Source of the DNA: Bacteroidales bacterium
GTDB taxonomy: Bacteria; Bacteroidota; Bacteroidia; Bacteroidales; WCHB1-69
Assembly (NCBI GenBank): GCA_017962275.1
Contig: JAGCVQ010000094.1
Location: 541 to 64,540, forward strand
Direction of reading: 5' to 3'
Length of the DNA: 64,000 nucleotides
Shown here in pieces: positions 26,097-41,565 of the stretch. How positions within the stretch are numbered: the first letter of the stretch is position 1; every line of letters starts with the position of its first letter. The notes below the pieces were generated by a model, which was not told the DNA's origin, made no database searches, and saw only the letters and a list, made by a program, of their open reading frames with translations. The translations under genes and the position numbers were made by a program.

Positions 26097-26159
26097 CCTA
26101 TTGCCTCTATCCTATTGCCTTTTGCCTTTTGCCTTTTGCCTATTGCCTTTTGCCTCCTA
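26097..26159. repeat. 7-nt word array (cctattg/ccttttg family), nine units
   Basis: It lies between the convergent nfo stop (26089-91) and the kinase stop (26157-59). It is the reverse complement of the GGCAATAG family. Confidence 0.85.
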
Positions 26160-27014
26160 CGGGAACACCAGCGCGAAAACCGTCTGGTGGCGGTCGCTTT
26201 GGCGTAGCAAGAGGGAGCCGTTATGGCGTTGCATGATGCGGCGCGAGAGGCTCAGTCCGATGCCGTTACCGTTAGGTTTGGTGGAATAGAAGGGCACGAA
26301 AATCTCCTCTTGCTGGCGCAATGGAACAGGCTTGCCGTTGTTGCGCACCTGAATCACCGTGCGATCCTCGTTGTCTAATTCGGCCATCAACTTAATTTCC
26401 GAGGCATTCGCCTCCAACGCATTCTTAACCAGATTGTTGAAAACCTGCATCAACTGCGATTCGTCCGCATAAAGCATTAAGTCGGGCGGATTGACCTGGT
26501 AGGTGATGACGGCGTTGCAATCCACCACCTTGATTTCGTTGAGACGCACTACCCTATCCAACAATTCACTGACCATCAATGTTTTGCAAACAGTCGGGGT
26601 CGCTTTGGTAAACGTGCGGTACGACTCCACAAAACGAATCAGCTCCTTCGAAGAGGAGGAGATGGTCTCCAATCCCGCCTTCGTGTCCAACGTGTCGTCT
26701 TTCGCAAGGGCATCGCTGAGGGCGGCAATCGGGGTCACCGTGTTCATCATCTCGTGCGTGATGACACGGAAGAGCTTGCTCCACGAAATCTCCTCATTGT
26801 TAGCGCTTTGCCGCTCCACAATTTTGCGGATGCGGTTGAGTTCACGGTTCATAGCCGAATTATCGCGGAAACGGAAATTCGTCTCGCCATCCTCCAAAGC
26901 ATCCATCATGTAGGCCACCTTTTCGCGGTTGCGCTTCAACACCCACAAAGCAGCCAGCAAAGCCGACACAATGCAACCGCCTGCCAATATTCCTATCCAA
27001 GCCCACGTACTCAT
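26157..27014 (-). CDS. Sensor histidine kinase (one TM helix, HisKA and HATPase domains)
   Basis: It has the H-box ITHEMMNTVTPI, the N-box NLVKNALEA and the G-box GNGIGLSLSRRI. Confidence 0.8.
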   Translation of the reverse strand: MSTWAWIGILAGGCIVSALLAALWVLKRNREKVAYMMDALEDGETNFRFRDNSAMNRELNRIRKIVERQSANNEEISWSKLFRVITHEMMNTVTPIAALSDALAKDDTLDTKAGLETISSSSKELIRFVESYRTFTKATPTVCKTLMVSELLDRVVRLNEIKVVDCNAVITYQVNPPDLMLYADESQLMQVFNNLVKNALEANASEIKLMAELDNEDRTVIQVRNNGKPVPLRQQEEIFVPFYSTKPNGNGIGLSLSRRIMQRHNGSLLLRQSDRHQTVFALVFP

Positions 27015-28354
27015 ATCCCGTATTTTTTCAGACGATTGTACAGTGTCGGGCGACTGATATTCAACGCTTTAGCCACCAAAGTCAGGTTGCCGTTGTACTT
27101 TTTGAGCGCGTTGCGGATGACCTTCTCTTCGGCCTCCTCCAACGACTCAACCGTAGCCGTTTTTTCTTTCGTAATCAGCTCAGCATCATTGATTTGGAGA
27201 TCTTCCGGTTGGAGAATCTCGTTTTCGGAGAGGATGACGGCCTTCTCCATGCGGCTTTGCAGTTCCCGGACATTTCCCGACCAGCGACAACGTTGCAGTA
27301 ACGCTACCGCCTCGTCAGAAACGGCTGTGACATTGCGGCGGTACTTTTTGGCATAACGCTCTATGAACAAGGCGGCTAACGGCGCGATTTCGTCCGTGCG
27401 CTCACGCAAGGGCGGCAGTTGTATCGCCACCGTGTTGATACGGTAGTAGAGGTCTTCACGGAAGCGACCGTCGCGCACCATCGCGGGCAAATCCTTGTTT
27501 GTGGCGCAAATCAGCCGTATGTCGATGGGAATCTCTTTGGTGTCGCCCACTTTCGTGACGCAGCGGTTTTGCAGCACCCGCAACAGCTTGGACTGCAGAT
27601 GCAGCGGGATGTTCCCAATTTCGTCGAGGAAGAGCGTCGTGCCGTTGGCTTGCTCGAATTTGCCAGTATGGTCGGTGCGTGCGTCGGTGAAGGCGCCTTT
27701 CACATGCCCGAACAATTCGCTCTCGAACAGAGTCTCCGACAACGAACCGATATCGACGCTCACCATCGGTTTGGCTGCCCGCGACGACAGTCGGTGTATC
27801 TCGTTGGCCAACACATCCTTGCCAGTACCGTTCTCGCCGGTAATCAGGACCGTGGCATCGGTCGGGGCCACCTTCTCCACCGTGCGGCGGATAGCGGTCA
27901 TGGCGGAACTCTCGCCCCACAGCATCTCGGAATGCTCCGCAGGCGTTGCAGTCTGTTTGTCCGCTTTTCCGTGATGGCAAGCAGCCTCCAGTGTGGCCAT
28001 CAGGTGCGCATTGTCCCACGGTTTCACGATGAAGTCGAAGGCACCGCGCTTCATACCCTCCACAGCGAGCGGCACATCCGCGTAAGCCGTCATCAGAACC
28101 ACCTCAATCTCAGGGAATTGCCGTCTCAGTTCAGTCAGCCAAAAGAGTCCCTCGTTGCCGGTGTTGATGTCGGTCTCGAAGTTCATGTCGAGCAGCACCA
28201 CATCGGGGCGGAAGCTGCGCAGTGTGGAAATCAGCACTTTGGGCGTAGCAACGGTTTCCACCGCCTCGAAACGCGGCGGCAGCAGTATCTTCAGCGTGGC
28301 GCGGATGCCCGCGTTGTCATCCACGACTAATATTCTGGATTTGAGTTTGGACAT
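27011..28354 (-). CDS. Sigma-54-dependent response regulator (NtrC/Fis family bEBP)
   Basis: It has a receiver domain (VVLLDMNF), an AAA+ domain (GENGTGKDVLANEIH, GAFTDA, ESELFGH) and a C-terminal HTH (LVAKALNISRPTLYNRLKKYGI). Its stop overlaps the kinase start (ATGA). Confidence 0.9.
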   Translation of the reverse strand: MSKLKSRILVVDDNAGIRATLKILLPPRFEAVETVATPKVLISTLRSFRPDVVLLDMNFETDINTGNEGLFWLTELRRQFPEIEVVLMTAYADVPLAVEGMKRGAFDFIVKPWDNAHLMATLEAACHHGKADKQTATPAEHSEMLWGESSAMTAIRRTVEKVAPTDATVLITGENGTGKDVLANEIHRLSSRAAKPMVSVDIGSLSETLFESELFGHVKGAFTDARTDHTGKFEQANGTTLFLDEIGNIPLHLQSKLLRVLQNRCVTKVGDTKEIPIDIRLICATNKDLPAMVRDGRFREDLYYRINTVAIQLPPLRERTDEIAPLAALFIERYAKKYRRNVTAVSDEAVALLQRCRWSGNVRELQSRMEKAVILSENEILQPEDLQINDAELITKEKTATVESLEEAEEKVIRNALKKYNGNLTLVAKALNISRPTLYNRLKKYGI

Positions 28355-28398: not shown

Positions 28399-28406
28399 CA
28401 AAAATA
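28399..28406 (-). promoter_or_regulatory. -7 promoter box TATTTTTG (response regulator / kinase operon)
   Basis: It lies 44 nt upstream of ATG 28354. Confidence 0.45.
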
Positions 28407-28569: not shown

Positions 28570-30933
28570 TTATTCGTTCCGCAGCGACTTCACCGGGTTC
28601 ACCGTGGCGGCGCGCAGACTGCGTAACGTCACCACCGCAACCGTGACGGCGAGGACCGCCAGCAACGCCAAGGCGAAGACCCACCAATGCAGCGGCACAC
28701 GATAGGCGAAACCTTCCAGATAGCGGTGCATGATGACGATGCTGAGGGGCACGGCAATGACGAAGCAGACCAGCACAATCTTCACGAATCGGGCGTTGAA
28801 CATCGCCAGCACCTCCCCTTCCGTAGCCCCGTTTACCCGACGGATACCAATCTCCTTGCGACGGTGCTCCGTCTCGAACATCACCAACCCGAACACGCCC
28901 ATGAGCGAGATGACGATGGCCAAAACAGTGAACAAGGTGACCAATTTCGAGAGATTCTGCTCTTTTATGTATTGGTTCTCAATGGATTGGGAGAAAGGCC
29001 ACACCTCGTATGACATCTCCTCGCCCATGGTGGGGTCAAGGTCGTTGAGGGTTTTGGTGATGCGCTCCATCAAAGCTGGGACATCCACGCCTGCCTCAGT
29101 GCGGATAAACAATCTCATGCAAATGTGCCACGGATCTTTACCATAAACATAGAATGCAAAAGGCTCAATCCCTTGCCGCAGCGAGGCGAAATTGAAGTCC
29201 TCGCAAAAGCCCGCAATTTCGGCGATTTGGTCACCATGACCGCCAATCTGGTCTTCAAGAGTGATTTGGTACTTGTCTTTTGCGGTTTTGTTGAAGATAT
29301 ACACGCCATTAGACTGCTCATCGGCTTCGGTGAAATCACGGCCTTCGATGATGTCGATGCCCATAAAGCGCAGGAAGTTCCACGAAACAGGATAAACCTG
29401 CCAACCGGCATCTTCGCCACGCACTTTTCTACCCCAACTCATGCGGGAATCTTGGATGAAGGGACCGTCACCCCAAGCGACATCTTTGATGGCAGCATCG
29501 GCTTTCAACTTACTTTCCACTGCCTCGCGGTTCTTGGCAAGATTCCATGAAACCTGCGACTGCAACAGACATTCTTGGTCGAAGCCCATTTCATGGTTCA
29601 TCATGAAACGGCGTTGCTCGTGAACGAATATCGCACAGATTATCAACACTATAGAAATAGTGAACTGCAAGCCAATCAGACCGATGCGGAAAGCTTTTCC
29701 TTTTTGCGTGGTGCCGAAAGTGCCTTTCAAGGCGAAGACCAGATTAAACGAGGTGGCGAACAAGGCGGGATAAATACTGGCAGCTACGGAGATGAGCAAT
29801 GCCAAGCCGATAGTCAAAGCAACGACGCCACCATTCTGTCCGAAATCAAGTGAAGTGTCAATCAATGAAGCCAATGTAGATTGTTTGAAGAGGATAACCA
29901 CACCTACAGCAAGTGCCAAAGATATAGCCACCATCAGCACCGATTCGCCCACCGACGACATCACCAACTGGAAACGACTGCTACCCAGTATCTTGCGCGT
30001 GTTGATGCTGCGCAGACGAAGGGGCAACATGGCGAAGAAAAAGTTGATGTAGTTGATGAAGGCGATGACCACCACGAAAATGGCGATGACGAGCAGGGTC
30101 ATCGTTGTGGTTTTGTTGCCCGCTTTACCAGGGGCAAAATACGAATTGCTGTCGAAGTACATATCGGTCAATCGCACAGGGTAAAGTCCAAACTTGACAT
30201 CCTCGTCAGTGGCCTCTTTTCCTGTCATTTCACTGAAAAAACGTCTGGTCACAGGCTTTGCCACTTCGACAATCGCATTGGGATCTGCACCTTTGCGAAG
30301 TTTCAGAAAATAGTTGAACGAGAACTCGCTCCATTCATTGATGCAATTATCGCCAAAATCGGCCAACATTTCAAAAGAAGAAAGGTCGCTGTGCTTCGGC
30401 ATATCTTTATAGATGACCACGATGGATATTTCCCGCCACGCTGAGCCATCATAATACTTTATTATATCACCCACTTGGACACCCAAACGTTTTGCCGCCG
30501 ATTCCGAGAGAGCAAAGCCCGTGCCTGTCAAATCGTCCCAATTGCCAGTCACGAGTTCGAAACCGAAAACATCACGTGCGCCCTTGTTCATGGCAGCTAT
30601 TGAGATGGACACAGGTGATTGTCCATCGCTTACACGAACTGTGATGGGATTGCCTATGATTTTACCACAGCCACCAGCTTCGATATCAGGGGAAGAGTTG
30701 ACAACATACTCCCCCATGGGTCGGCAGAGGTAAGAGGAATATTCGCTTTGGTTGATTTCCTTCTGGGTAAGGACATAGATCCGGTCGCTGTCCTTGAGTG
30801 CCTTGTTGTAGGACAGGTCGTGATGCACCTGCACGAGGATGATGTACAGGGCGGCGAAGGCGGCCGTCAGTCCGAGGATGTTGAGGATTGACGACACCAT
30901 GGTGGTTTTGCCTTTTTTGAATATGCGTGACAT
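28570..30933 (-). CDS. ABC transporter permease, MacB/FtsX-like (two FtsX domains)
   Basis: It is 787 aa with an N-terminal TM helix, a large periplasmic domain, two four-TM blocks and a C-terminal NPVKSLRNE. Confidence 0.8.
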   Translation of the reverse strand: MSRIFKKGKTTMVSSILNILGLTAAFAALYIILVQVHHDLSYNKALKDSDRIYVLTQKEINQSEYSSYLCRPMGEYVVNSSPDIEAGGCGKIIGNPITVRVSDGQSPVSISIAAMNKGARDVFGFELVTGNWDDLTGTGFALSESAAKRLGVQVGDIIKYYDGSAWREISIVVIYKDMPKHSDLSSFEMLADFGDNCINEWSEFSFNYFLKLRKGADPNAIVEVAKPVTRRFFSEMTGKEATDEDVKFGLYPVRLTDMYFDSNSYFAPGKAGNKTTTMTLLVIAIFVVVIAFINYINFFFAMLPLRLRSINTRKILGSSRFQLVMSSVGESVLMVAISLALAVGVVILFKQSTLASLIDTSLDFGQNGGVVALTIGLALLISVAASIYPALFATSFNLVFALKGTFGTTQKGKAFRIGLIGLQFTISIVLIICAIFVHEQRRFMMNHEMGFDQECLLQSQVSWNLAKNREAVESKLKADAAIKDVAWGDGPFIQDSRMSWGRKVRGEDAGWQVYPVSWNFLRFMGIDIIEGRDFTEADEQSNGVYIFNKTAKDKYQITLEDQIGGHGDQIAEIAGFCEDFNFASLRQGIEPFAFYVYGKDPWHICMRLFIRTEAGVDVPALMERITKTLNDLDPTMGEEMSYEVWPFSQSIENQYIKEQNLSKLVTLFTVLAIVISLMGVFGLVMFETEHRRKEIGIRRVNGATEGEVLAMFNARFVKIVLVCFVIAVPLSIVIMHRYLEGFAYRVPLHWWVFALALLAVLAVTVAVVTLRSLRAATVNPVKSLRNE

Positions 30934-31726: not shown

Positions 31727-32407
31727 TTACAATTCCGGTAACACGTCCTCCACCACCCTGCCGTCGAACAGGTTGATGATGCGGTCGGCGTAGCCGGCGT
31801 CGCGCTGGGAGTGGGTGACCATCACGATGGTGGTGCCCTCTTTGTGGAGCTCGGTGAGCAGGTCCATCACCTCCTTGCCGTTCTTGGAGTCGAGGTTGCC
31901 GGTGGGCTCGTCGGCGAGAATCAGCTTGGGATTGGCGACAACGGCGCGGGCGATGGCGACACGCTGCTGCTGACCGCCCGAGAGTTGCTGCGGAAAATGC
32001 TTGGCACGGTGCGTGATGGCCATCCGCTTCATCATGGCCGTGACCCGCTCCTTGCGCTCGGTAGCACTGATTTTCATGTACTTGAGCGGTAACTCAATGT
32101 TCTCATAGACGTTCAGCTCGTCGATGAGGTTGAAGCTCTGGAATACGAAGCCGATGTTGCCCTTGCGGAATTTGGTGCGCTCACGCTCCTTCAGCTTTCC
32201 CACCTCCTGACCGAGCAGCTCGTAGGTGCCGCCCGTGGGGTTGTCCAACAGCCCGAGGATGTTGAGCAGCGTGGATTTGCCGCAGCCCGAAGGGCCCATC
32301 ACGGCGACGAACTCGCCAGTTTGAATTTCGAATGAGACACCATCCAACGCGAGGGTCTCGATTTCTTCCGTGCGGAAGATTTTTGATAGGTTTTGTACTT
32401 TGATCAT
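31727..32407 (-). CDS. ABC transporter ATP-binding protein (MacB/LolD type)
   Basis: It has Walker [13 protein letters not shown], the signature [14 protein letters not shown] and Walker [13 protein letters not shown]. Confidence 0.9.
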
Positions 32408-32436
32408 ATTTAAGGAATTTTTGATGTTTCTATACG

Positions 32437-32510: not shown

Positions 32511-32531
32511 AAAAGTATCCTCAATAAAGCA

Positions 32532-32547
32532 AACATTTTCCGTGCCA
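32532..32547 (-). promoter_or_regulatory. Degenerate sigma-54-like element TGGCACGGAAAATGTT
   Basis: The -24 TGGCAC is perfect. The -12 position reads TGT instead of TGC, and a TTGC lies 4 nt out of register. The flank matches the tolC-upstream element (TTGGCACGG). Confidence 0.25.
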
Positions 32548-32599
32548 AAAGCGTAAACGGTTGATTTTCAAATTTCTATATAGAACGTAAAAAGGGGAG

Positions 32600-32638
32600 T
32601 GTAAAGTATTCTTACAAGTTGTGTAAATAACCTTTACA
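32600..32638. promoter_or_regulatory. Two TGTAA-N7-TTACA dyads, 22 bp centre to centre
   Basis: The dyads are at 32600-32616 and 32622-32638. They start 53 nt from the GTGCCA hexamer. The geometry matches 39243-39281. Confidence 0.5.
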
Positions 32639-32693: not shown

Positions 32694-32806
32694 CTATTTT
32701 CGGGGCATGTCCTCACCCTTTCGTGAAAACAAGTTTTTTGGCGCAATCTTGTTGTTATCTTATCAACAAAAAAATTATAATGTTCTTGATATTAAACAAA
32801 AAAGTG

Positions 32807-32814
32807 TATTTTTG
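32807..32814 (+). promoter_or_regulatory. -7 promoter box TATTTTTG (hipB)
   Basis: It lies 24 nt before ATG 32839. Confidence 0.45.
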
Positions 32815-32838
32815 CGCAAAATTTTGAACATTATAAAA

Positions 32839-33156
32839 ATGAAACGACCTTTATTACCAAAACAGGAAAGAATGTTGCGAGGCATGGGAGATAACCTCCG
32901 CCTGGCTCGATTGCGCCGTGACCTAAGTTCGGAACAGGTAGCTGAACGCGCCGGCATTTCACGAAACACCCTGATCAAAATCGAGAAAGGGGATGAAGGG
33001 GTTGCCATCGGCATGTATTTCCGTGTGCTCATAGTGCTTGGATTGCAGGATGACCTATCGCTCATCGCCCGCGACGATGTGTTAGGCCGCAAACTTCAAG
33101 ACATTGGTCTGACTACCCCACGCCGCGCCACCAAACGACCACCCCTAAATAACTGA
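32839..33156 (+). CDS. hipB: XRE-family HTH regulator, HipB-like antitoxin
   Basis: It carries LRLARLRRDLSSEQVAERAGISRNTLIKIEKG and sits immediately upstream of a hipA remnant. The track start at 32707 lies upstream of the promoter box. Confidence 0.7.
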   Translation: MKRPLLPKQERMLRGMGDNLRLARLRRDLSSEQVAERAGISRNTLIKIEKGDEGVAIGMYFRVLIVLGLQDDLSLIARDDVLGRKLQDIGLTTPRRATKRPPLNN

Positions 33157-33160
33157 CACC

Positions 33161-33758
33161 ATGGACAAAACAATCTATGTATATTTCGACGACTCCTATT
33201 CCAAAGCCCCCACTTTGATAGGAATGCTTTCGGCGCAGCAAGTGCGCGGTCGCGAAGAGATTTGACAGGGCCGAACAGGGCAAGCGAATTCATTTCACCT
33301 CGGCGATGACCATGCTTGGATACTCCGATGGAAACACTGAAGGCTGCAGTTATTTAGAGTTATTTGAATGGATTGCTAACAATTGCTGTGAAGTTGAGAA
33401 AAACCTTGCCGAGATGTGGCTACGCATCGTTTTCAACATTGCCGTGTCAAACTGTGACGACCATTTACGCAATCACGGGTTTTTGCTTACGCCAAATGGT
33501 TGGACGCTTTCGCCCGCCTACGACCTCAATCCGCTGGAGTACGGTACCGGATTAAATCTTAATATTAATGAATATGAGAACGCTCTTGATTTCTCACTTG
33601 CCATTGAGGTTGCCCAATATGCTGGAATCACAAAAGATGAAGCGAACAAAATCGTGCAACACACGAAGGAAACAGTTTCCCAATGGCACCGTATAGCAAC
33701 TTCATATCAAATTCCTCGCGAAGAGCAAGAGATGATGTCAGCGGCGTTTAAAGTTTAA
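33161..33758 (+). pseudogene. hipA: HipA-family kinase toxin with an internal deletion and frameshift
   Basis: The N-terminal 34 codons (MDKTIYVYFDDSYSKAPTLIGMLSAQQVRGREEI) end at TGA 33263-65. A different frame then continues as ...RFDRAEQGKRIHFTSAMTMLGYSDG...NCDDHLRNHGFLL (the catalytic loop). The total is about 0.6 kb, compared with roughly 1.2-1.3 kb expected. Confidence 0.7.
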
Positions 33759-33784
33759 TGTTAGACTCTTCTCTGAACAAAAAA

Positions 33785-36127
33785 TCATTCTTTCTTCAAC
33801 GCCTCCGCAGGATTCGTTTTCGCCGCGCGCAACGTCTGCCAGAGAACCGACAGGAACGCAATTAGGAGCGAAAGCACGACGGCGAGGATGAAGATCCACG
33901 GGGAGAGGTCGATGCGGTAGGCGAAGCGTTCTAAGTACTTGCCGCACACGTAGATGGCGATGGGGACAGCTATTGCGTTGGCGAGCAGCATCAGGATGAG
34001 GTACTCAATCAGACTACGGCAGGTTTCGCTTTCCAAGGTGCCACCGAAGACCTTGCGGATGGCGATGCTCCTTTCCCGCTCGGAAGCGAAATGGGCGCTC
34101 ATGGCCACCAAGCCCAACAACGACAGCAGCACCGAAACAGCCATGATCAGCTCGATGAGACGCATCTGCCGTTTGGTTTTTCCGTATTTCGAGGCGACGA
34201 CATTCTTCAGAAAATCGTTGTAATCCGGCTCCATATAGGTGCCCAAAGCCGCCATGCAATGCTTCTCATACACCGCATCAATGGCTCGTTTGGCCTCCTT
34301 GTGGTCGCCCAAGATCTCCAACAACGGATGAGCGACTCGTGCAAAAACAGGATCGCCATTGCTAAAAACAATGGTAAAGTCTTCGTCGGCGGCATGCAGG
34401 GCATCCAACATGTTGAAATCCTTGATGACACCGCAAACATCGTTAGCGATATTGCCCTGCCTCCAAAGCAAAATCGTGTCATAATTATAGTCACCGTATG
34501 GTAGCCCCGTCAAGCCTGCCACGGCACTTTCCGTCATCCAAAAACTCGTCGCTTCCGGTTCATGGAACTGTTCAACCACCTGAAAACCCAACATGCGGAA
34601 GGCCGCCGTGTCGCAATTAAACGAAAAAACAATGGTATTCCTTTCCGTCTCGCCCATTTTGGTCATAACCAAATCCGTGGTTGTAACGCCCGGAACATTC
34701 TCTGTAAAAGCCAATTCCTTCACGCATGGCAAGCTGCGGACTTCATCGACAAAAGCGGTCTTTTCGGGAAGATCGTCCAACTTGGAACTGACGAAATAAA
34801 GGTTGTCCGTCTGCAGACCGACGGGACGATTCATCATGTGCCGCATTTGCAGTTGCATCGTAATCACCACGGCGATCAGCACGATGGAAATGACGTTTTG
34901 GACCACCATGAAGAGCCGCGACAACTCTTTGCGTGAGCGAAAGCGGAAGGTGCCCTTCACCACATCTATAGGTTTGGTCTGCGACACGATGAGAGCGGGC
35001 AAGATACCAGCCAAAAGCGACACCACCACGACCATCAGCAGGTAGGCCAGAAGATAACCCGTTGTGAACGGAATGCGCACCGCCACATCAGCCCTCAACA
35101 AATCGTTGACGTATGGCACACTAGCGTAGGCCAGCAGCAATCCGACGATAAAACAGCCCAACGTGAACCAAAACGATTCGGCCAGGAAACGTCCGATGAC
35201 AGCCGATTTTTGCGCCCCCAACAATCGCCGCGACGCCATCTCCTTCGCACGTTTCCCCACAAGCGCCACATTCAGGTTGATATAGTTGATGAGCGCGGAG
35301 AGCAGCAGCAACAGCCCGACCACAACCACGGTGCGGAGCATCGACCTGTCACCTTGTTGCAAATGACATTTTGTTTCACTGAAAAAGATCTCATCCATCC
35401 GAATCATCGTGACATTCTCCTTGTAGAAGACACTATAAATATGGTCATACTTCTCCTTGCAAAGAGCATCCACCTTCTCTGCCAGAAGCGCACGGTCTGC
35501 ATTCGGCACCGCCTTGATGAAGGTATGGAAACTATTATGATAATAAAGTGGATTCTCTCTGTAAACAGCCAATTCTTTGCAGGTTTCAATGTTGCCTATG
35601 ATATCGGCGTCATACAACAAGGAACTGCCCAAGTCGGAAATCACGCCTACTATAGTCAGCGTGTCATTCTCCGCAATAACCTGTTTTCCAACCACTTCCC
35701 CTTTCATTTTGGAAGCCAACTTTTCCGAAATAAAAGCCACATGGGCTTTGGTCAGATTGTCGGGACCACCCTCTTTGAACTGAACGGGGAAGATGTCGAA
35801 GAAGTCGCGGTCACAGGAGAGGACATTGCCCACAAACGACTCGCCTTCCGCTTTCAGGAGCTGGTCGTGCTGAAAATAGAAATGGGTCACACATTCCACT
35901 TCAGGGATTTTGTCGCCGATGATTTCCTTCATCCCGTAGCCATTGGTCATATTATCGCTGCCCACGGCATAGATCCGTTCGCGGTCGGGGTTCTCGCGCG
36001 GCACGGCGTATTGCTGCATCACGTAGCAGAAGCTGATGATGACGAAGGCGAGCGACACGCTCAGCCCCACCGCCTCGATGGCGGTGTATAACTTGTTTCT
36101 GCTGAGGAATTTAAGGTATGATCTCAT
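33785..36127 (-). CDS. ABC transporter permease, MacB/FtsX-like (two FtsX domains)
   Basis: It begins MRSYLKFLSRNKLYTAIEAVGLSVSLAFVI, is 780 aa, and ends NPAEALKKE. Confidence 0.8.
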   Translation of the reverse strand: MRSYLKFLSRNKLYTAIEAVGLSVSLAFVIISFCYVMQQYAVPRENPDRERIYAVGSDNMTNGYGMKEIIGDKIPEVECVTHFYFQHDQLLKAEGESFVGNVLSCDRDFFDIFPVQFKEGGPDNLTKAHVAFISEKLASKMKGEVVGKQVIAENDTLTIVGVISDLGSSLLYDADIIGNIETCKELAVYRENPLYYHNSFHTFIKAVPNADRALLAEKVDALCKEKYDHIYSVFYKENVTMIRMDEIFFSETKCHLQQGDRSMLRTVVVVGLLLLLSALINYINLNVALVGKRAKEMASRRLLGAQKSAVIGRFLAESFWFTLGCFIVGLLLAYASVPYVNDLLRADVAVRIPFTTGYLLAYLLMVVVVSLLAGILPALIVSQTKPIDVVKGTFRFRSRKELSRLFMVVQNVISIVLIAVVITMQLQMRHMMNRPVGLQTDNLYFVSSKLDDLPEKTAFVDEVRSLPCVKELAFTENVPGVTTTDLVMTKMGETERNTIVFSFNCDTAAFRMLGFQVVEQFHEPEATSFWMTESAVAGLTGLPYGDYNYDTILLWRQGNIANDVCGVIKDFNMLDALHAADEDFTIVFSNGDPVFARVAHPLLEILGDHKEAKRAIDAVYEKHCMAALGTYMEPDYNDFLKNVVASKYGKTKRQMRLIELIMAVSVLLSLLGLVAMSAHFASERERSIAIRKVFGGTLESETCRSLIEYLILMLLANAIAVPIAIYVCGKYLERFAYRIDLSPWIFILAVVLSLLIAFLSVLWQTLRAAKTNPAEALKKE

Positions 36128-36146
36128 ATCTTTATTTATTTGGTGT

Positions 36147-36221
36147 CCCCCACATTGCGCTTCGCTTATGTGGGGTTAATTGCACTTCGTGCGTCTTGTC
36201 CCTTCGGGACTGCTCAAGGAA
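36147..36221 (+). repeat. REP-A three-hairpin element, copy 3
   Basis: The hairpins are CCCCACAT...ATGTGGGG, GCAC-TTC-GTGC and GTCCC-TTC-GGGAC. It lies 19 nt upstream of the permease start. Confidence 0.8.
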
Positions 36222-36236
36222 GCTATTTTATATTAC

Positions 36237-36275
36237 TACCCCGCCCTTCGGGCACCCCTTCTATAATAGAAGGGG
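36237..36275 (+). repeat. REP-B two-hairpin element, copy 2
   Basis: The sequence is TACCCC GCCC-TTC-GGGC A CCCCTTCTAT-A-ATAGAAGGGG. The second stem differs from copy 1 but is still self-complementary. Confidence 0.7.
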
Positions 36276-36292
36276 GATTGGGGTCGCCCGTT

Positions 36293-36383
36293 CCTTTTGC
36301 CTTTTGCCTTTTCCCTGTTGCCTATTGCCTTATAACTGCTAACTACTAACTGCTAACTACTAACTGCTAACTACTAACTCGTC
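36293..36383. repeat. 13-unit 7-nt word array with two families joined in one phase
   Basis: The units read ccttttg x2, ccttttc, cctgttg, cctattg, ccttata, then actgcta/actacta alternating x6, then actcgtc. The array contains the MFP stop at 36360-62 and encodes the protein's last residues. Confidence 0.85.
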
Positions 36384-37622
36384 TGCCTCCCCAAACCGTT
36401 CGTACGACGACGTGATCACCCTTTCCCCGGGCTCCAGCCCTTCAAGCACCTCGTAGTACTGCGGGTTCTGGCGGCCGATGCGGATTTCGCGTTTCACGGC
36501 TTTGGTGCCGTCGGGCGAGAGGACATAGATCCACTTGCCGCCGGTGGTTTGGTAGAACGCACCACGGGGGATTAAAATTGCCTCCACGGGCTGACCGAGC
36601 TGCAAATTTAGGTAAAAAGTCTGGCCGTTGCGAATGTTTGTAGGTTGCTCGCCAGAAAATTTGAAGTCGGCCTTGAACTTGCCGTCACGAACCTCGGGAT
36701 AGACCTTGCGTATCAGCACGTTATGCTTGCCATCCTGACGCTCCACCGTGGCTTCCAAACCCGCTGTCACCCGGTCGATGTAGTGCTCGTCTATCAGGGC
36801 TTCGATTTTGTAGTTGTCCTGATTGTTGATCTGTCCAACCTTGCTGCCCATCGCGACAGATTGCCCGAGCACCACATCCACCAGACCCAACTCGCCGTCA
36901 ATAGGCGCTTTGATGGTGAGATTCTCTTTCCGTTTGCGTATCATCTGCATGTTAAGTCGCATATTTTCAAGACTTTCGCGCATCTGTCGAATTTCGACGG
37001 AGCGATAGAGGCTGTCCTGCTTGGCGCGGTTCTCCACTAACGTCAGACGGTCCTGCGCCAGCTGGTAATCCTCCTCGGCCTGCAAAAAGGCCTCTTTCGC
37101 TATGAGATTGTCCTGATAGAGTGCCTTTTGAGAGTCGTAGGTGCGCTTCTTGCGACGAACCTCCATCCGCAACTGCAACATCTCCTGCTGCAACGTCAGT
37201 TTCTGTTGTTCCATGGAAATCAAGGTGTTACGCAAGATATTCTCTTTCTCAGCCAAGTCTGCCTCGGCGTTCAGAATCTGCATGTCGAGACTTTCGTTGC
37301 TGAGAACCAATATGACGTCGCCCTCGCGCACGTGCGAGCCCTCTTCCGCCACGATCTGCTGCACTATCCCACCCTCCAACGGACTGAGCTGCACGGTCGT
37401 CATGGGCACCACGCGCCCGCTCACACGGATGTAGTCGTTGAACTCGCCTCGCCGCACTTCGCTCACGGTGAGGTCGTTACCGCCCACGCGCAGCTTCTTC
37501 GCATCGTCACGTAGTAACAGCCACCCGATGAAGAGCAGCAAGAGTGCGCCGCCCCAGAAGGGGATGGCCTTGCGGGTGAAGATTTTTCGGATTCCTTTTG
37601 TTGGTTCTATTGTTCTGTCCAT
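36360..37622 (-). CDS. Efflux periplasmic adaptor (HlyD/MacA-type membrane fusion protein)
   Basis: It has an N-terminal TM helix, a coiled-coil hairpin (LTLQQEMLQLRMEVRRKK...) and beta-barrel C-terminal domains. Length is 420 aa. Confidence 0.85.
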   Translation of the reverse strand: MDRTIEPTKGIRKIFTRKAIPFWGGALLLLFIGWLLLRDDAKKLRVGGNDLTVSEVRRGEFNDYIRVSGRVVPMTTVQLSPLEGGIVQQIVAEEGSHVREGDVILVLSNESLDMQILNAEADLAEKENILRNTLISMEQQKLTLQQEMLQLRMEVRRKKRTYDSQKALYQDNLIAKEAFLQAEEDYQLAQDRLTLVENRAKQDSLYRSVEIRQMRESLENMRLNMQMIRKRKENLTIKAPIDGELGLVDVVLGQSVAMGSKVGQINNQDNYKIEALIDEHYIDRVTAGLEATVERQDGKHNVLIRKVYPEVRDGKFKADFKFSGEQPTNIRNGQTFYLNLQLGQPVEAILIPRGAFYQTTGGKWIYVLSPDGTKAVKREIRIGRQNPQYYEVLEGLEPGERVITSSYERFGEADELVVSS

Positions 37623-37640
37623 AGCATTTGTTCTTGTCTG

Positions 37641-37720
37641 CCCCCCCCCACATTACGCTTCGCTTATGTGGGGTTAATTGCGCTTCGCGCGTCTTGCCCC
37701 TAACGGGGCTGTTTAAGGAA
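37641..37720 (+). repeat. REP-A three-hairpin element, copy 4
   Basis: The hairpins are CCCCACAT...ATGTGGGG, GCGC-TTC-GCGC and GCCCC-TAAC-GGGGC (a compensated third stem). It lies 18 nt upstream of the MFP start. Confidence 0.8.
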
Positions 37721-37736
37721 AGTGTTTTTAATATTA

Positions 37737-37771
37737 TTCTTCATTATGCATTCTTCATTCTTCATTGATAA
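37737..37771. repeat. 7-nt word array (ttcttca family)
   Basis: The units read ttcttca ttatgca ttcttca ttcttca ttgataa. The array contains the TolC stop at 37755-57. The minus-strand sense reads TGAAGAA repeats. Confidence 0.75.
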
Positions 37772-39107
37772 GCCTCGCGTAGTACCGCACCACCTCGCAT
37801 TTCACGAAATACGTCAACCTCGCGTGCAGGTATTCGGCGGTGGCGTTCAGGTGGTTGTCGGCGACGGTTTGGTATTCGACGGCGGAGGTGAGGCCTTGCT
37901 CGAATTGTTTGGTGCTCAGCGCGTAAAGTTCCTGCTGGAGGGCGGCGTGCTGCTGTGCCTGGCGCAGGGCTTCGGCGGCACCGTCACGGTCGGCGATGGC
38001 GCGGCGCACCTCCGCGTCGGCCTCGTGTTGCGCCTGCTCGCGCCGCGCCTCCGCACGGTCGAGTTCGTTGCGCCGCCGCGCGATCTCAGACTGCCGCGAA
38101 AAACGGTCGTAAATCGGGATGTTCAGCGACAGCTGCACGTACTCACCGCCATTGTCTGCGATCTGTCGCCAGTAAGGGGCTGGCACATAGCCTGTTTTGC
38201 CGGGATAGGTAAAGTAGGTCGAGGACCAGCCGCCATACAACGACAGCGACGGCAACAGCCGCCACTTCGCGGTCCTGAGGGCGATGCGGGCGGTCTCATA
38301 CTCCCCATTGGCTATGATTACTCGCGGAAGCCGAGTCACCGCCTGCATCGCCCTTGCCGCCTCATCCTCATTGCCGGAAGATGTCGCGCCAAACATGGAA
38401 TCCGGCCATTCCATATCGATGTTCAACACCTTTTGATTATCATACAACATAATGTCTGTCAGGGTGATATATGCGTCATTGAGATGATTGCTGCATACCG
38501 TCAATTGATATTCACGGTCGGAGAGTTCCGCCTTGGTATGCAGCACATCGGAGTAGGATTTCTGTCCCAATTCGTACTGCCGCTGCGCAAAAAGCATCGC
38601 CTTCTCGGCCGTGTTCACCTGTGCGCGAATGGCGTTACTCAATTCGGTATAGTAAAGCACGTTGCAGTAAGCCTCCATCACGGCGAGACAGAGTCGGTCC
38701 TCAACCTGCTGTTGCTTGGTCAGTCCTGACTGTTCCGCAATCTTCGTGATTTTCAGATTGTTGACTGCCTGAAAACCGTTAAACAACGTGATGCCCGCCG
38801 ACAATCCATACCCATTGTGGAAAGAGGTAACCGTACTGTAGGTGTTGGTTTCGGGGTCAATCGAGCGTCCGAAGTTGGAATAAGCATACGCATCGCCACT
38901 GACGGTCGGGGTGAAGGCCCTGAGGATGGCCTCGCGACGGGAAATCTGCGCGTCCCGACAGTCTGCTTGCTGCAACCTCACTTCCGCTGAATGTGCCAAA
39001 GCGTAGCTCATGCACTCCCGCAACGTCATCCGCACGGTGTCCTGCGCGTGCGCCGTAAAAGACAGCACTGTCATCAGCATCATTATTATCCACATTCGCA
39101 AATACAT
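37755..39107 (-). CDS. TolC-family outer-membrane efflux protein
   Basis: It has a signal peptide ending FTAHAQ and two TolC repeats. It is 450 aa and is the first gene of the efflux cluster. Confidence 0.85.
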   Translation of the reverse strand: MYLRMWIIMMLMTVLSFTAHAQDTVRMTLRECMSYALAHSAEVRLQQADCRDAQISRREAILRAFTPTVSGDAYAYSNFGRSIDPETNTYSTVTSFHNGYGLSAGITLFNGFQAVNNLKITKIAEQSGLTKQQQVEDRLCLAVMEAYCNVLYYTELSNAIRAQVNTAEKAMLFAQRQYELGQKSYSDVLHTKAELSDREYQLTVCSNHLNDAYITLTDIMLYDNQKVLNIDMEWPDSMFGATSSGNEDEAARAMQAVTRLPRVIIANGEYETARIALRTAKWRLLPSLSLYGGWSSTYFTYPGKTGYVPAPYWRQIADNGGEYVQLSLNIPIYDRFSRQSEIARRRNELDRAEARREQAQHEADAEVRRAIADRDGAAEALRQAQQHAALQQELYALSTKQFEQGLTSAVEYQTVADNHLNATAEYLHARLTYFVKCEVVRYYARLINEE

Positions 39108-39120
39108 CCTATTTATATAT

Positions 39121-39211
39121 TGGCTATTAGTTGTTGGCTATTGGCACTAAACCATAAACCCTAAACCAAACCATGCCAATGCCGTGCCAAACCGGCAAAT
39201 CGCTAATCGAC
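39121..39211. repeat. Extended 7-nt phased region (tggctat, aaaccat, aatcgct words)
   Basis: The units read tggctat tagttgt tggctat tggcact aaaccat aaaccct aaaccaa accatgc caatgcc gtgccaa accggca aatcgct aatcgac. It starts 13 nt from the tolC start and includes the sigma-54-like element. Confidence 0.6.
39174..39189 (-). promoter_or_regulatory. Candidate sigma-54 promoter TGGCACGGCATTGGCA
   Basis: The GG-N10-GC spacing is satisfied. The -24 TGGCAC is perfect and the -12 is TGGCA against the consensus TTGCA. It lies about 65 nt upstream of the tolC ATG, and a sigma-54 bEBP is encoded in the same cluster. Confidence 0.45.
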
Positions 39212-39242
39212 AACATCTTACAAAAACAAACAAGGGGAACGT

Positions 39243-39281
39243 TGTAAGAAATTCTTACAACGACTGTAAGCGGAATTTACA
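39243..39281. promoter_or_regulatory. Two TGTAA-N7-TTACA dyads, 22 bp centre to centre (candidate bEBP UAS)
   Basis: The dyads are at 39243-39259 and 39265-39281. The first is part of the 21-bp perfect palindrome GTTGTAAGAA-A-TTCTTACAAC. They start 54 nt upstream of the -24 hexamer. Confidence 0.5.
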
Positions 39282-39352
39282 ATGACGACGCGCATTTCCT
39301 GTCTTTGGACAAAAAATTATTCGGAATTACATCGTGGTATCAAAAAAAAGTG

Positions 39353-39375: not shown

Positions 39376-39447
39376 GCTGCGTTCTTCTAACGGTTAGGAA
39401 TCAAGATTCTCAATCTTGCAATACGAGTTCGATTCTCGTACGCAGTA
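39376..39447 (+). tRNA. tRNA-Glu (anticodon CTC)
   Basis: I folded it by hand. The acceptor is GCTGCGT/ACGCAGT, the D-arm is TTCT-AACGGTTA-GGAA, the anticodon arm is CAAGA-TTCTCAA-TCTTG, the variable loop is 4 nt, and the T-arm is ACGAG-TTCGATT-CTCGT. Confidence 0.85.
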
Positions 39448-39454
39448 CAAAAGG

Positions 39455-39483: not shown

Positions 39484-39518
39484 ATAGGCAATAGGCAACA
39501 GGCAATAGTGATTAGGTA
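39484..39518. repeat. 7-nt word array (ataggca family)
   Basis: The units read ataggca ataggca acaggca atagtga ttaggta. Confidence 0.75.
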
Positions 39519-40603: not shown

Positions 40604-40633
40604 TTTCTGGTTGTTAGCTGGTGATATTTGGTA

Positions 40634-40696
40634 AAGGCTAATAGCCAAAAGCTAAAAGCTAATAGCCAGATGCAAATAGCTGAAAGCTAAGCGCTA
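40634..40696. repeat. 7-nt word array (aaagcta/atagcca family), nine units
   Basis: The units read aaggcta atagcca aaagcta aaagcta atagcca gatgcaa atagctg aaagcta agcgcta. Confidence 0.8.
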
Positions 40697-40727
40697 AAAA
40701 AAAATGCTCAATTGTACGAAAAAAAAC

Positions 40728-40837: not shown

Positions 40838-41509
40838 ATGAACATCGAAAAATACGACGAAATCCGGGCTTCCTTGCCCGCCGGCGTGCGACTGGTCGCC
40901 GTCTCCAAATTCAAACCGGCGGAGGACATTGCCGCGCTGTACCAACATGGGCAGCGCGTTTTTGGTGAGAACCATGCGCAGGAGATGAAATCCAAACACG
41001 AGATTCTTCCTCAAGACATCGAATGGCACTTCATCGGGCACCTGCAAACCAACAAAATCAAATACATCGCGCCGTATGTTGCACTGATTCACAGCATTGA
41101 CAGCTTCAATTTGCTGAAAGAGGTCAACAAACAGGCTGTCAAGAACAACCGCGTAATTCCCTGCCTGCTGCAATTCCACATCGCCGACGAAGAGACCAAA
41201 TTCGGGTTCAGTTTGGAAGAATGCGAGGAGATGCTGCAAAGCCCCGATTTTCAGGAGTTAAAAAACGTGAAAATCCACGGGGTAATGGGCATGGCCACTT
41301 TCACGGACGACCACGGGCAGGTGCGCCGAGAGTTCCATCATCTGCATGACATTTTCGAAACACTCAAATTCCGATATTTCTCGCAAAATCCTGATTTCAA
41401 AGAGCTTTCGATGGGCATGACCGACGACTACCCCATCGCCATCGAGGAGGGCAGCACCCTGATCCGTATCGGCAGCGCCATTTTCGGCCCACGGAATTAT
41501 CAGACGTGA
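40838..41509 (+). CDS. yggS: YggS-family PLP-binding homeostasis protein
   Basis: It carries RLVAVSKFKPAEDI (the PLP lysine) and HFIGHLQTNK. Length is 223 aa. Confidence 0.85.
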   Translation: MNIEKYDEIRASLPAGVRLVAVSKFKPAEDIAALYQHGQRVFGENHAQEMKSKHEILPQDIEWHFIGHLQTNKIKYIAPYVALIHSIDSFNLLKEVNKQAVKNNRVIPCLLQFHIADEETKFGFSLEECEEMLQSPDFQELKNVKIHGVMGMATFTDDHGQVRREFHHLHDIFETLKFRYFSQNPDFKELSMGMTDDYPIAIEEGSTLIRIGSAIFGPRNYQT

Positions 41510-41565
41510 GACGTATGACGTAAGACTTTGAACTTGAAACTTTGAACCTTGAACTTTGAACTTTA
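41503..41565. repeat. 7-nt word array (gacgtga ... aactttg family)
   Basis: The units read gacgtga gacgtat gacgtaa gactttg aacttga aactttg aaccttg aactttg aacttta. The first unit supplies the yggS stop TGA at 41507-09. The vocabulary matches 6398-6446. Confidence 0.85.

Follow-up and report, generated by a model that had tools for sequence, protein, structure and literature searches.

Upstream of a tolC-like gene in the genome of a rumen or gut Bacteroidales bacterium lies an arrangement of short motifs resembling a sigma-54 promoter with its enhancer, which raises the question of whether an efflux pump of this organism is under enhancer-dependent control and which regulator would exert it. 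The initial annotation of the window (the whole stretch of DNA analysed, 64,000 nucleotides) had proposed a circuit running from a histidine kinase through a sigma-54 activator, paired dyads and a sigma-54 promoter to the pump. Conservation in related loci, matrix ranks and the co-occurrence of regulator and kinase support this proposal, and the circuit as a whole has strong inferential support. Judging from its sequence, the region is very probably an enhancer-dependent (sigma-54, RpoN) promoter, one of two in the cluster (Table 1).

Candidate promoters and paired dyads in the efflux cluster

The cluster has the make-up of a MacAB-TolC-like tripartite exporter, encoding OEP, HlyD_3, FtsX plus MacB_PCD (twice) and ABC_tran domains. 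With MacAB-TolC and DarBCD exporters it shares a TolC-like channel in the outer membrane, an adaptor of HlyD type, a permease of FtsX/MacB type that has a periplasmic core domain, and an ATPase resembling LolD/MacB. Unlike them, the ATPase is a separate polypeptide, and the permeases are duplicated, ADOP-like proteins of ∼780 aa with several paralogues per cluster. The cluster proteins miss the NCBIfam equivalog cutoffs for MacB, MacA and TolC, as they do all curated equivalog cutoffs for exporters of these kinds. The pump is therefore of the same type as MacAB-TolC, not an orthologue of it.

Table 1. Coordinates of the genes and candidate regulatory elements of the efflux cluster, numbered from the first nucleotide of the window.
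Feature	Position	Strand	Sequence	Basis or remark
P1 distal enhancer dyad	39265..39281	-	TGTAAATTCCGCTTACA	exact TGTAA-N7-TTACA; centre ∼-110; kept in orthologues
P1 proximal enhancer dyad	39243-39259, in palindrome 39240..39262	-	TGTAAGAATTTCTTACA	centre ∼-88
P1 sigma-54 type -24/-12 promoter (candidate)	39173..39190	-	TTGGCACGGCATTGGCAT	sequence match and orthologue-derived matrix
tolC-like outer membrane efflux protein gene	37755..39107	-		Pfam OEP, E=1.3e-40
Membrane fusion (HlyD-type) adaptor gene	36360..37622	-		Pfam HlyD_3, HlyD_D23; DarC-like best NCBIfam match, below curated cutoff
FtsX/MacB-type duplicated permease A	33785..36127	-		Pfam FtsX and MacB_PCD; NCBIfam ADOP-like, below curated cutoff
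P2 distal enhancer dyad	32622..32638	-	TGTAAAGGTTATTTACA	centre ∼-109
P2 proximal enhancer dyad	32600..32616	-	TGTAAGAATACTTTACA	centre ∼-87
IHF-consensus-like site (tentative)	32554..32566	-	AATCAACCGTTTA	exact match to WATCAANNNNTTR; between P2 enhancer and promoter
P2 sigma-54 type promoter (candidate)	32531..32548	-	TTGGCACGGAAAATGTTT	TGT, not TGC, at -12
ABC ATPase gene (MacB/LolD/DarD-like)	31727..32407	-		Pfam ABC_tran, E=1e-36; NCBIfam
FtsX/MacB-type duplicated permease B	28570..30933	-		Pfam FtsX and MacB_PCD
Primary-sigma type -7 box	28399..28406	-	TATTTTTG	∼45 nt upstream of regulator gene; consensus TAnnTTTG
Sigma-54-dependent response regulator (REC, AAA+, HTH_8), candidate dyad binder	27011..28354	-		Pfam Sigma54_activat E=1.2e-68, Response_reg, AAA_lid_14, HTH_8
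Histidine kinase, single N-terminal membrane helix, no extracytoplasmic domain	26157..27014	-		Pfam HisKA, HATPase_c; hydropathy and orthologues
Dyad centres are given relative to the predicted transcription start.

The first module, P1, stands where it had been annotated. Its site on the minus strand (TTGGCACGGCATTGGCAT, 39190-39173) stops 65 nt short of the tolC start codon (ATG at 39107). It reads TGGCACGGCATTGGCA, with a perfect TGGCAC, exact GG-N10-GC spacing and a -12 element (TGGCA) one mismatch away from TTGCA; it thereby follows the sigma-54 consensus layout (GG at -24, GC at -12, TGGCAC-N5-TTGCW). Transcription is predicted to start near 39163, leaving a 5'UTR of ∼56 nt. The tandem TGTAA-N7-TTACA dyads were likewise recovered; a distance of 22 bp separates their centres (39251 and 39273). 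The proximal one, described earlier as a 21-bp palindrome, is in fact a perfect palindrome of 23 bp. From its centre it is 62 nt downstream to the T of TGGCAC.

The initial annotation knew this single module. P1 stood, the count of one did not: a second module of identical build, P2, lies upstream of the ABC ATPase gene. Its dyads are also spaced by 22 bp, and in both modules TGGCAC begins 53-54 nt after the proximal dyad. Upstream activator sequences of NtrC-type activators have at least two dyad-symmetric sites ∼80-150 bp upstream of the start and in helical phase, and both modules conform to this layout. The P2 core (TGGCACGGAAAATGTT, its -24 part TTGGCACGG at 32548-32540) keeps the GG and the G at -13 and has T in place of C at -12; at the same position the orthologous loci L001 and L002 read TGGCACGGAAAATGAT. 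The predicted start is near 32521, with a 5'UTR of ∼114 nt. A candidate alternative -12 element, TGTTTGCT, 4 nt past the canonical one, was rejected, being absent from L001 and L002 and at odds with the strict GG-N10-G spacing of the family.

Site scoring with a matrix derived from orthologues alone placed P2 (21.1 bits) first and P1 (18.5 bits) second among 127,960 window positions. The other high-scoring matrix hits in the window, at 22831, 20777, 32002 and 30526, were taken as chance, since they are intragenic and lack dyads. The dyad pattern occurs four times in the window, as two pairs, against 0.00 expected from 100 shuffles, a significant excess. The -24/-12 pattern by itself is not significant, with 2 matches at up to one mismatch against 1.66 expected per window.

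Primary-sigma promoters of Bacteroidetes carry a -7 box of consensus TAnnTTTG, and a start-site map of B. thetaiotaomicron reported this primary-sigma motif and one other only (PMC7366714). On the minus strand no such box lies between the P1 dyads and tolC, leaving no competing primary-sigma promoter for this gene. The sole TAnnTTTG box of the P1 intergenic region, TATTTTTG at 39353, points toward tRNA-Glu. One primary-sigma box lies upstream of the P2 dyads, at 32693.

The spacer between enhancer and promoter of P2 holds an exact match to WATCAANNNNTTR, absent from P1. Across the orthologous modules the corresponding element is a loose consensus, partially conserved at matching positions; counted from TGGCAC, the family retains A at -30, T at -24 and TT at -10/-9. 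The IHF-like site may serve to bend the DNA; such a site between enhancer and promoter is common, not obligatory. In the Rfam searches, the whole window at gathering thresholds returned four tRNAs only, and region 32380-39320 at E<=1 returned no matches; neither the modules nor the 5'UTR elements thus correspond to a curated RNA family.

Conservation of the modules among related loci

Orthologue comparison strongly separates the modules from chance. Exact dyads number 156 in 80 orthologous loci taken from genome contigs (1.24 Mb), where ∼1 would be expected, and the composite of dyad and -24/-12 element recurs at fixed geometry upstream of tolC in 65 of 71 orthologous loci. Related loci totalling 2.48 Mb contain 101 composites, of which 99 lie on the same strand as the operon; five block-shuffled replicates together contain 2 (∼0.4 per replicate). 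The composite is thus far beyond chance. In most dyad clusters the last dyad is followed 52-56 nt further downstream by TGGCA, which is rarely found on the opposite side, and the distance from the proximal dyad centre to TGGCAC is 61-65 nt in 70 of 77 orthologous modules. The 17-bp dyads share the consensus TGTAAAG-N3-CTTTACA and are mostly spaced by 19-22 bp, with a few at 32-33 bp. A phylogenetic footprint over dyads and promoter is visible in an alignment of five sequences.

A profile of 77 non-redundant modules retains information at positions not forced by the anchoring. TT precedes TGGCA (90% and 74%), C and G stand at +5 (81%) and +6 (74%), and further on there are T at +12 (83%), G at +13, which is promoter position -13 (94%), and C or T at +14 (79%). 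These unselected positions reproduce TTGGCACG-N4-TTG(C/T), the overall form of the module being TTGGCACG-N4-T(T/G)G(C/T), and the profile reads as the canonical GG-N10-GC sigma-54 layout. The C at -12 is conserved in only 47% of the family.

The gene immediately behind an orthologous module is of the TolC, FtsX, ABC or regulator kind. Scanning metagenomes for the DNA pattern, with no other criterion, yielded 134 modules, 120 of them with a callable first downstream ORF, and 82 of these ORFs encode pump or regulator proteins: TolC (35), FtsX-type permease (39), ABC ATPase (5), membrane-fusion protein (2) and regulator (1). Other neighbours encode DUF2807, DUF4932 and a ∼765-aa CarboxypepD_reg-domain protein, at a guess an outer-membrane beta-barrel. 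Altogether, the related genomes and metagenome contigs in which a module stands before the equivalent pump genes number well above a hundred. The carriers are rumen, chicken and human gut Bacteroidales, including one cultured isolate, Bacteroides caecigallinarum An428a (L053).

Several further features accompany the family. Variant loci retain the half-site rearranged as direct repeats, T-rich sequence comes after many of the proximal dyads, and forward-strand TGTAAA half-sites lie directly downstream of many module promoters. Other palindromic repeats occur in this genome.

The candidate regulator and competing explanations

The last two genes of the cluster had been annotated as an NtrC-type sigma-54 regulator and a histidine kinase, and the Pfam architectures (REC-Sigma54_activat-HTH_8 and HisKA/HATPase) bear this out. 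The regulator has the composition of a group I bacterial enhancer-binding protein: a REC domain with acidic pocket and phospho-acceptor Asp, an AAA+ domain with Walker A and B motifs and loop, and a C-terminal Fis-type HTH. Recognizable in its sequence are DD12-13, D56, GENGTGK and LFLDEIG. The sigma-54 contact loop is GAFTDA (residues 219-224), conserved in 56 of 59 orthologues and listed among the functional variants of the GAFTGA loop (PMC4641369). In the kinase, the membrane anchor is followed by a conserved YMxDALEDGExNFRF segment. The -7 box ahead of the regulator gene is likely the basal promoter of regulator and kinase.

The regulator scores below the NCBIfam equivalog cutoffs for PrsR (405 against 503 bits), AtoC (376 against 714), NtrC (354 against 559) and ZraR (339 against 760). 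Because it falls below every curated cutoff, it is not regarded as an orthologue of any named regulator. Its best NCBIfam matches, of the ZraR, AtoC and PrsR type, share its three-domain architecture, and its closest solved structures are Aquifex aeolicus NtrC1 and NtrC4 (PDB 4l4u, 1ny5, 3dzd; E=1e-78 to 1e-88). It differs from all of these in DNA site and regulon.

From sequence we infer binding of the dyads by this regulator, the presence of a sigma-54 gene and its use, the transcription start sites and a bending element. The membrane-anchored kinase (26157-27014) would phosphorylate the regulator (27011-28354), whose dimers would sit on both dyads through the Fis-type HTH and form an AAA+ ring. 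By DNA looping, the ring would reach the sigma-54 holoenzyme, held as a closed complex at -24/-12, and ATP would serve to open the promoter; the AT-rich spacer between dyads and promoter may be bent. P1 (39173-39281) would drive tolC, the membrane-fusion gene and permease A, and P2 (32531-32638) the ABC ATPase gene, with possible read-through to permease B, the regulator and the kinase. Between P2 and these last three lie 0.8 kb that hold a hairpin and genes on the opposite strand, which makes autoregulation from P2 uncertain in this genome. The primary-sigma promoter before the regulator gene would supply a basal level of the two-component system.

Among the competing explanations, the one that survives best accepts the sigma-54 promoter and its enhancer and assigns the dyads to another sigma-54 activator encoded elsewhere. 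Several such activators are possible per genome, some loci have no regulator gene inside the 10-kb flank, and the pairing proposed here rests on synteny and on parallel conservation of helix and half-site. However, no DNA-binding or signalling genes other than regulator and kinase recur in the clusters, and these two accompany the pump genes in all 33 loci in which the retrieved sequence includes them, a count restricted to these loci. In locus L079, moreover, a module lies directly upstream of regulator-kinase-tolC-MFP, and the recognition helix (ISRPTLY-x-K/R-LKKY) is near-invariant across orthologues in parallel with the invariant half-site. An activator from elsewhere is thus unlikely.

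Still less probable is that the dyads are operators of another factor acting on a primary-sigma promoter. Palindromes are typical of operators, and the neighbourhood offers two candidates: an XRE-type (HipB-like) gene, divergent from P2, that starts 69 nt from the distal P2 dyad, and a factor controlling the divergent tRNA-Glu gene, which lies 95 nt from the distal P1 dyad. The former was rejected because the XRE gene occurs in 1 of 200 related loci, whereas the dyads occur in most. Control of tRNA-Glu was rejected as well, since this gene has its own -7 box at 39353 and is not a conserved neighbour, and the stretch from dyads to tolC is free of TAnnTTTG. More generally, upstream neighbours differ between loci while the placement of the dyads relative to TGGCAC and the pump genes is constant in both distance and orientation.

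Two explanations have very little probability left. Were the palindromes to work as nucleic-acid hairpins, in the manner of terminators or repetitive extragenic palindromes, and not as protein-binding sites, the stability of the two P1 dyads as RNA (-14.4 kcal/mol, z = -5), the T-rich sequence behind many proximal dyads and the other palindromic repeats of the genome would fit; against this, more than 100 instances keep TGTAAAG without compensatory changes, the stems are AT-rich, the position relative to the -24 element is fixed, and the direct repeats of the variant loci are incapable of forming hairpins. The other is that the -24/-12 match arose by chance or as a by-product of adjoining 7-nt words and has no promoter function; its by-product part, a caveat of the initial annotation, is refuted. 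This explanation could draw on the 1.66 one-mismatch TGGCAC-N5-TTGCA matches expected per window and on heptad arrays directly downstream, yet Tandem Repeats Finder detects weak arrays only (39118-39145 and 39148-39168), both ending short of P1, heptad-free relatives retain TGGCA(C/T)-N5-TGGCAT at the same dyad distance, the unforced TG at -12 is conserved in 83-94% of modules, and no other position in the window scores as high with the matrix as P1 and P2.

Relation to known systems and biological meaning

The preferred reading, a sigma-54 promoter served by its own two-component activator, places the module within a known kind, the NtrC-type enhancer with a sigma-54 promoter. The enteric NtrC/glnAp2 system likewise pairs a two-component REC-AAA+-Fis-HTH activator with two 17-bp dyads of 7-N3-7 layout, on the same helical face, upstream of TGGCAC-N5-TTGC, and in both systems activation is thought to proceed via oligomerisation and DNA looping. 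The differences lie in the half-site (TGTAAAG here, TGCACCA in NtrC), in the spacing (19-22 bp with centres near -88 and -110, against 32 bp with sites near -108 and -140) and in the target (an efflux pump, against nitrogen assimilation). The GAFTDA loop and the score below the NtrC equivalog cutoff further set the present regulator apart.

A functional analogy is offered by BceRS-BceAB of Firmicutes, in which a kinase lacking an extracytoplasmic sensor domain stands beside an FtsX-type ABC transporter and controls its genes, through an OmpR-type regulator and a sigma-70 type promoter and with no outer-membrane component. In the present cluster the regulator is of the sigma-54 type, an outer-membrane component is present, and the transporter as sensor remains an analogy.

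To our knowledge, sigma-54 regulons in Bacteroidales are almost uncharacterised experimentally. An RpoN box was not found in six-frame translations of the window and 200 related loci (2.17 Mb), which cover the genomes only partially. The presence of rpoN is presumed because of what is known of the order: the gene is known in P. gingivalis (PGN_1202; PMC11225630), and sigma-54-dependent genes of B. thetaiotaomicron are cited in PMC12316311. A literature search for the half-site strings returned unrelated papers only, and a search for a Bacteroides sigma-54 regulator of efflux pumps found only this latter study from 2025, which finds sigma-54 promoters statistically over-represented ahead of genes for COG0577 FtsX permeases in Bacteroidia (PMC12316311). 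It agrees with the present analysis on the link between sigma-54 promoters and FtsX-type transporters in the same bacterial class. Unlike the present analysis, the enrichment is at COG level, and the passages of that study concerned with it contain no enhancer motif, cognate two-component system, module geometry or tolC-first operon (PMC12316311).

What the analysis supplies is a tandem enhancer motif (TGTAAAG-N3-CTTTACA), a fixed module geometry, a candidate cognate two-component system and a set of target genes comprising TolC, the adaptor, FtsX-type ABC exporters and a few envelope proteins. The inducing signal is probably an envelope-active compound exported by the pump. A bolder and rather doubtful proposition sees in the module the cis-regulatory mark of an envelope-defence regulon that is widespread among gut and rumen Bacteroidales and relies on transporter-coupled sensing. 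If this were true, a kinase without sensing of its own would monitor how active its target FtsX-type transporters are, as BceS does with BceAB, and output through sigma-54 would keep the off state tight. The regulon would then reach secreted or outer-membrane proteins (DUF2807, DUF4932 and the ∼765-aa CarboxypepD_reg protein), and the downstream forward-strand TGTAAA half-sites would form an extra control layer. The composite motif can be used to annotate the regulon in metagenomes, and it makes testable how abundant commensals turn on MacB-like pumps, which are probably directed against antimicrobial peptides, bile or bacteriocins.

Two putative enhancer-promoter modules in the pump cluster

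The 270-bp gap between tRNA-Glu(CTC) and the tolC-like gene holds P1, a minus-strand module in which two TGTAA-N7-TTACA dyads, the candidate enhancer, precede a sigma-54 type -24/-12 element. The initial annotation had described this promoter, its dyads and the surrounding genes from sequence alone; re-reading of the sequence and Pfam searches found the description accurate, except that the perfect palindrome spans 23 bp rather than 21 bp and the extent given for a region of 7-nt phased words (39121-39211) was too long. The dyad occurs four times in 64 kb against 0 expected, and the two further copies belong to P2, a second module that had been overlooked. P1 and P2 have in common TTGGCACGG, as well as CCCCTT directly after the proximal dyad. 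The pump cluster contains two units: P1 would drive tolC, the adaptor and permease A, and P2 would drive the ABC ATPase gene and possibly also genes beyond.

Features of the pump cluster and of repeats in the window
Feature	Position	Strand	Remarks
tRNA-Glu(CTC)	39376-39448	plus	
P1 distal dyad TGTAAATTCCGCTTACA	39281-39265	minus	
P1 proximal dyad TGTAAGAATTTCTTACA	39259-39243	minus	within perfect palindrome 39262-39240
P1 spacer, proximal dyad to promoter element		minus	52 nt
P1 -24/-12 element TTGGCACGGCATTGGCAT	39190-39173	minus	then 65 nt to tolC ATG
Outer membrane factor, tolC-like	37755-39107	minus	Pfam OEP
Adaptor	36360-37622	minus	Pfam HlyD
Permease A	33785-36127	minus	Pfam FtsX + MacB_PCD
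P2 dyads	32622-32638, 32600-32616	minus	22 bp apart, as in P1
P2 promoter element TTGGCACGGAAAATGTT	32548-32532	minus	53 nt past dyads; 114-125 nt upstream of ABC ATPase gene
ABC ATPase	31727-32407	minus	Pfam ABC_tran
Permease B	28570-30933	minus	Pfam FtsX + MacB_PCD
Primary-sigma -7 box of regulator gene, TATTTTTG	28406-28399	minus	
Regulator	27011-28354	minus	Pfam REC, Sigma54_activat, HTH_8
Kinase	26157-27014	minus	Pfam HisKA, HATPase
~75-nt element	32425-32512, 36136-36223, 37634-37721, 4852-4945	minus	
~75-nt element, partial copy	near 57950-58000		
Heptad arrays (examples)	3730-3816, 5048-5079, 6398-6435, 7845-7951, 15346-15372, 26093-26155, 36293-36379, 37736-37766, 39118-39168, 39484-39508, 40632-40699, 41502-41564		
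GTAGAGACG-N10-CGTCTCTAC	16318-16345, 28538-28565, 31686-31713		

By itself, the -24/-12 match is not significant in the window (2 matches vs 1.66 expected), and the weight is carried by its context. Scoring with a sigma-54 matrix, proposed in the initial annotation, was carried out with a matrix built from orthologues, the window left out; P2 (21.1 bits) and P1 (18.5 bits) rank first and second of 127,960 window positions, and the hits that follow are intragenic and lack dyads. P2 also holds an exact match to the IHF consensus; a DNA-bending site between enhancer and promoter is plausible but unproven.

A solitary third half-site, TGTAAGA (39216-39222, minus), is situated 33 nt upstream of TGGCAC, in the stretch from the P1 dyads to the -24 element; relatives do not show it at the same position. 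Two small plus-strand gene pairs, both embedded in the minus-strand cluster, set permease B, the regulator and the kinase apart from P2 and the ATPase: an XRE-type HTH gene with a 150-aa HipA C-terminal fragment (32707-33758), between the P1 and P2 units, and a 109-aa ORF with a one-base overlap with a DUF5674 gene (30952-31670). Homologues of the latter pair and of HipA_C recur within the pump clusters of several relatives.

Conservation and geometry of the module

The 80 loci with the closest adaptor-protein relatives (67-87% identity, one genome per species) all come from rumen or gut Bacteroidales. Their 1.24 Mb contain 156 exact dyads, most of them ∼1.5 kb ahead of the adaptor gene, that is, before tolC. 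When clusters were selected by the dyad alone, the great majority had TGGCA 52-56 nt downstream of their last dyad, and hardly any had it on the opposite side. In the gene maps, nearly every related locus has the module immediately before TolC, and additional copies precede FtsX permease, ABC ATPase or regulator genes; regulator and kinase genes are present in 33/80 loci, a count limited to the fetched flanks. A composite of a sigma-54 matrix hit scoring 8 bits or more and a dyad (at most one mismatch) centred 55-70 nt upstream is present in 65/71 tolC orthologues, so that the comparison of orthologous upstream regions suggested at the outset finds a dyad and the -24/-12 element kept. Across 2.48 Mb there are 101 composites, 99 of them on the operon strand, against 2 in total in five block-shuffled replicates. 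The six composite-less loci follow the same logic in variant form: AGGTAC or AGGCAC at -24, TGTAAAG half-sites otherwise arranged and followed by a perfect TGGCACGGAGGTTGCA, or a module before regulator-kinase-tolC. In a five-sequence alignment of the P1 region, 59% identical overall, the invariant blocks map to both dyads and the -24/-12 element.

Alignment of 77 non-redundant modules on TGGCA, considering only positions unforced by the anchoring, yields T at -2 (90%) and -1 (74%), C at +5 (81%, the remainder T), G at +6 (74%), T at +12 (83%), G at +13 (94%), and C (47%) or T (32%) at +14, relative to the anchor. The consensus, TTGGCACG-N4-TTG(C/T), is the canonical sigma-54 layout, GG-N10-G(C). 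The TGGCA-type -12 of P1 also occurs in several relatives, as TGGCA(C/T)-N5-TGGCAT, and the TGT- or TGA-type -12 of P2 in two related loci, L001 and L002.

The dyad consensus is TGTAAAG-WWW-CTTTACA (unforced positions: A5 88%, G6 63%, C10 69%, T11 88%). In 70/77 modules the centre of the proximal copy precedes the T of TGGCAC by 61-65 nt; dyad starts are 19-22 nt apart, or 32-33 nt in a few modules. In the intervening DNA, the 77-module profile keeps some positions, counted from TGGCAC: A (-30), T (-24) and TT (-10/-9). Counting the -12 C as position -12, transcription is predicted to start near 39163 (P1) and 32521 (P2), with the dyads then expected to be centred around -88 and -110 in P1 and around -87 and -109 in P2.

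In 23/77 modules, TGTAAA is found on the forward strand only, between promoter and start codon. Over +17 to +157 there are 37 forward and 5 reverse occurrences, 34 of the former in +20 to +60; genome-wide frequency predicts ∼0.04 per 83-nt stretch per module. Examples (L025, L027, L029, L033, L047 and L062) lie 17-60 nt past the T of TGGCAC. The motif is absent after the window's own promoters; it may offer the regulator a further contact or act as a signal at the RNA level.

Regulator, kinase, rival readings and other repeats

By sequence and Pfam, the regulator shows all the defining features of a sigma-54 activator of the response-regulator type. Its sigma-54 contact loop, GAFTDA, counted among the functional loop variants (PMC4641369), is kept in 56/59 orthologues. 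Aquifex NtrC1 and NtrC4 are its closest solved relatives, and its scores fall short of the curated cutoffs for all named regulator families. The C-terminal recognition helix, ISRPTLY-x-K/R-LKKY, is nearly invariant in orthologues, including the clade with rearranged half-sites, which fits the invariance of the half-site. The regulator gene's -7 box could provide an inducible loop with the basal expression it requires. A single N-terminal membrane helix, followed directly by a conserved cytoplasmic YMxDALEDGExNFRF segment, is present in the kinase and in each of the 30 orthologues examined, and none of these proteins has an extracytoplasmic (periplasmic) domain. Orthologue lengths are mainly ∼285-293 aa and ∼400-435 aa; two are ∼317 aa, and one ends at the locus end.

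A sigma-54 activator encoded elsewhere might bind the dyads, but this is unlikely given the synteny of the module with the cluster regulator. Reading the palindromes as hairpins conflicts with the retention of the half-site sequence itself in >100 instances and with its occurrence as direct repeats. The initial caveat that the -24/-12 match could be a by-product of heptad words fails on position and conservation. Control of tRNA-Glu by the dyads was rejected, as this gene comes with a -7 box of its own (39353) and is not a conserved neighbour; so was an operator for the neighbouring XRE protein, whose gene is found in 1/200 related loci.

The heptad words themselves form ∼20 short tandem arrays, each with 3-10 copies of a unit of 7 nt (sometimes 8 nt) that varies between arrays. 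All seven checked in or around the pump cluster lie at gene boundaries (right after stop codons, or right before start codons or tRNAs), and relatives, including L002 and L053 (Bacteroides caecigallinarum An428a), have arrays of other units at equivalent junctions; position seems conserved, sequence not. The start codons of the adaptor, permease A and ABC ATPase genes are preceded on the sense strand, at a distance of 20-45 nt, by a repeated ∼75-nt element with three hairpins (GYCYC-GRA-GRGRC; GCRC-GAA-GYGC; CCCCACAY..GCGAAGC..RTGTGGGG); the ABC ATPase copy falls within the predicted P2 5'UTR, and L002 has four copies and L003 one. Nine copies yield 19 consensus pairs, of which 5 show compensatory changes; hardly any pair is broken. 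The element, without an Rfam match even at E<=1, could be REP-like or a cis-acting RNA. The palindrome GTAGAGACG-N10-CGTCTCTAC occurs three times in the window against 0 expected, twice in intergenic pump-cluster gaps (one directly behind the ABC ATPase stop, the other separating permease B from the regulator), with a similar sequence in the L001 P1 5'UTR. A 22-nt tandem repeat (unit CATCGGCTCATGCGTATATAGG, 5.2 copies, 95% identity, 21460-21572) adjoins tRNA-Arg(CCT) (21578-21650).

Breadth and relation to known systems

A metagenome scan for the DNA pattern only (dyad, 2-6 nt, dyad, 48-60 nt, TGGCA) returned at least 134 modules on at least 120 contig stretches from rumen, human gut and other samples. 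Among the 134 matches listed, the first downstream ORF encodes an FtsX permease in 39, TolC in 35, an ABC ATPase in 5, an adaptor in 2 and the regulator in 1; it has no match to pump or regulator proteins in 38, and 14 have no callable ORF. Six of the unmatched proteins, compared with Pfam, gave DUF2807, CarboxypepD_reg (in a ∼765-aa protein), DUF4932, TPR and, for two, no hit.

The available part of a 2025 comparative study (PMC12316311) describes sigma-54 promoters as statistically enriched upstream of COG0577 FtsX-type permeases in Bacteroidia, calls this the first evidence for such a link, and equates lineages without sigma-54 with those without activators; that part includes no enhancer, cognate two-component system or module geometry. 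For Bacteroides thetaiotaomicron, no sigma-54 motif is reported in the map of transcription starts (PMC7366714), and sigma-54 goes unmentioned in the modulome paper (PMC12596196); P. gingivalis PGN_1202 is a Bacteroidales rpoN example (PMC11225630).

The initial observation is confirmed and extended, and strong comparative evidence supports the proposed circuit from kinase through activator, dyads and sigma-54 promoter to pump. In kind, the predicted arrangement is a textbook NtrC-type enhancer with a sigma-54 promoter; the novelty lies in the specific motif, its geometry and regulon, and its wide spread in uncultured and cultured Bacteroidales.
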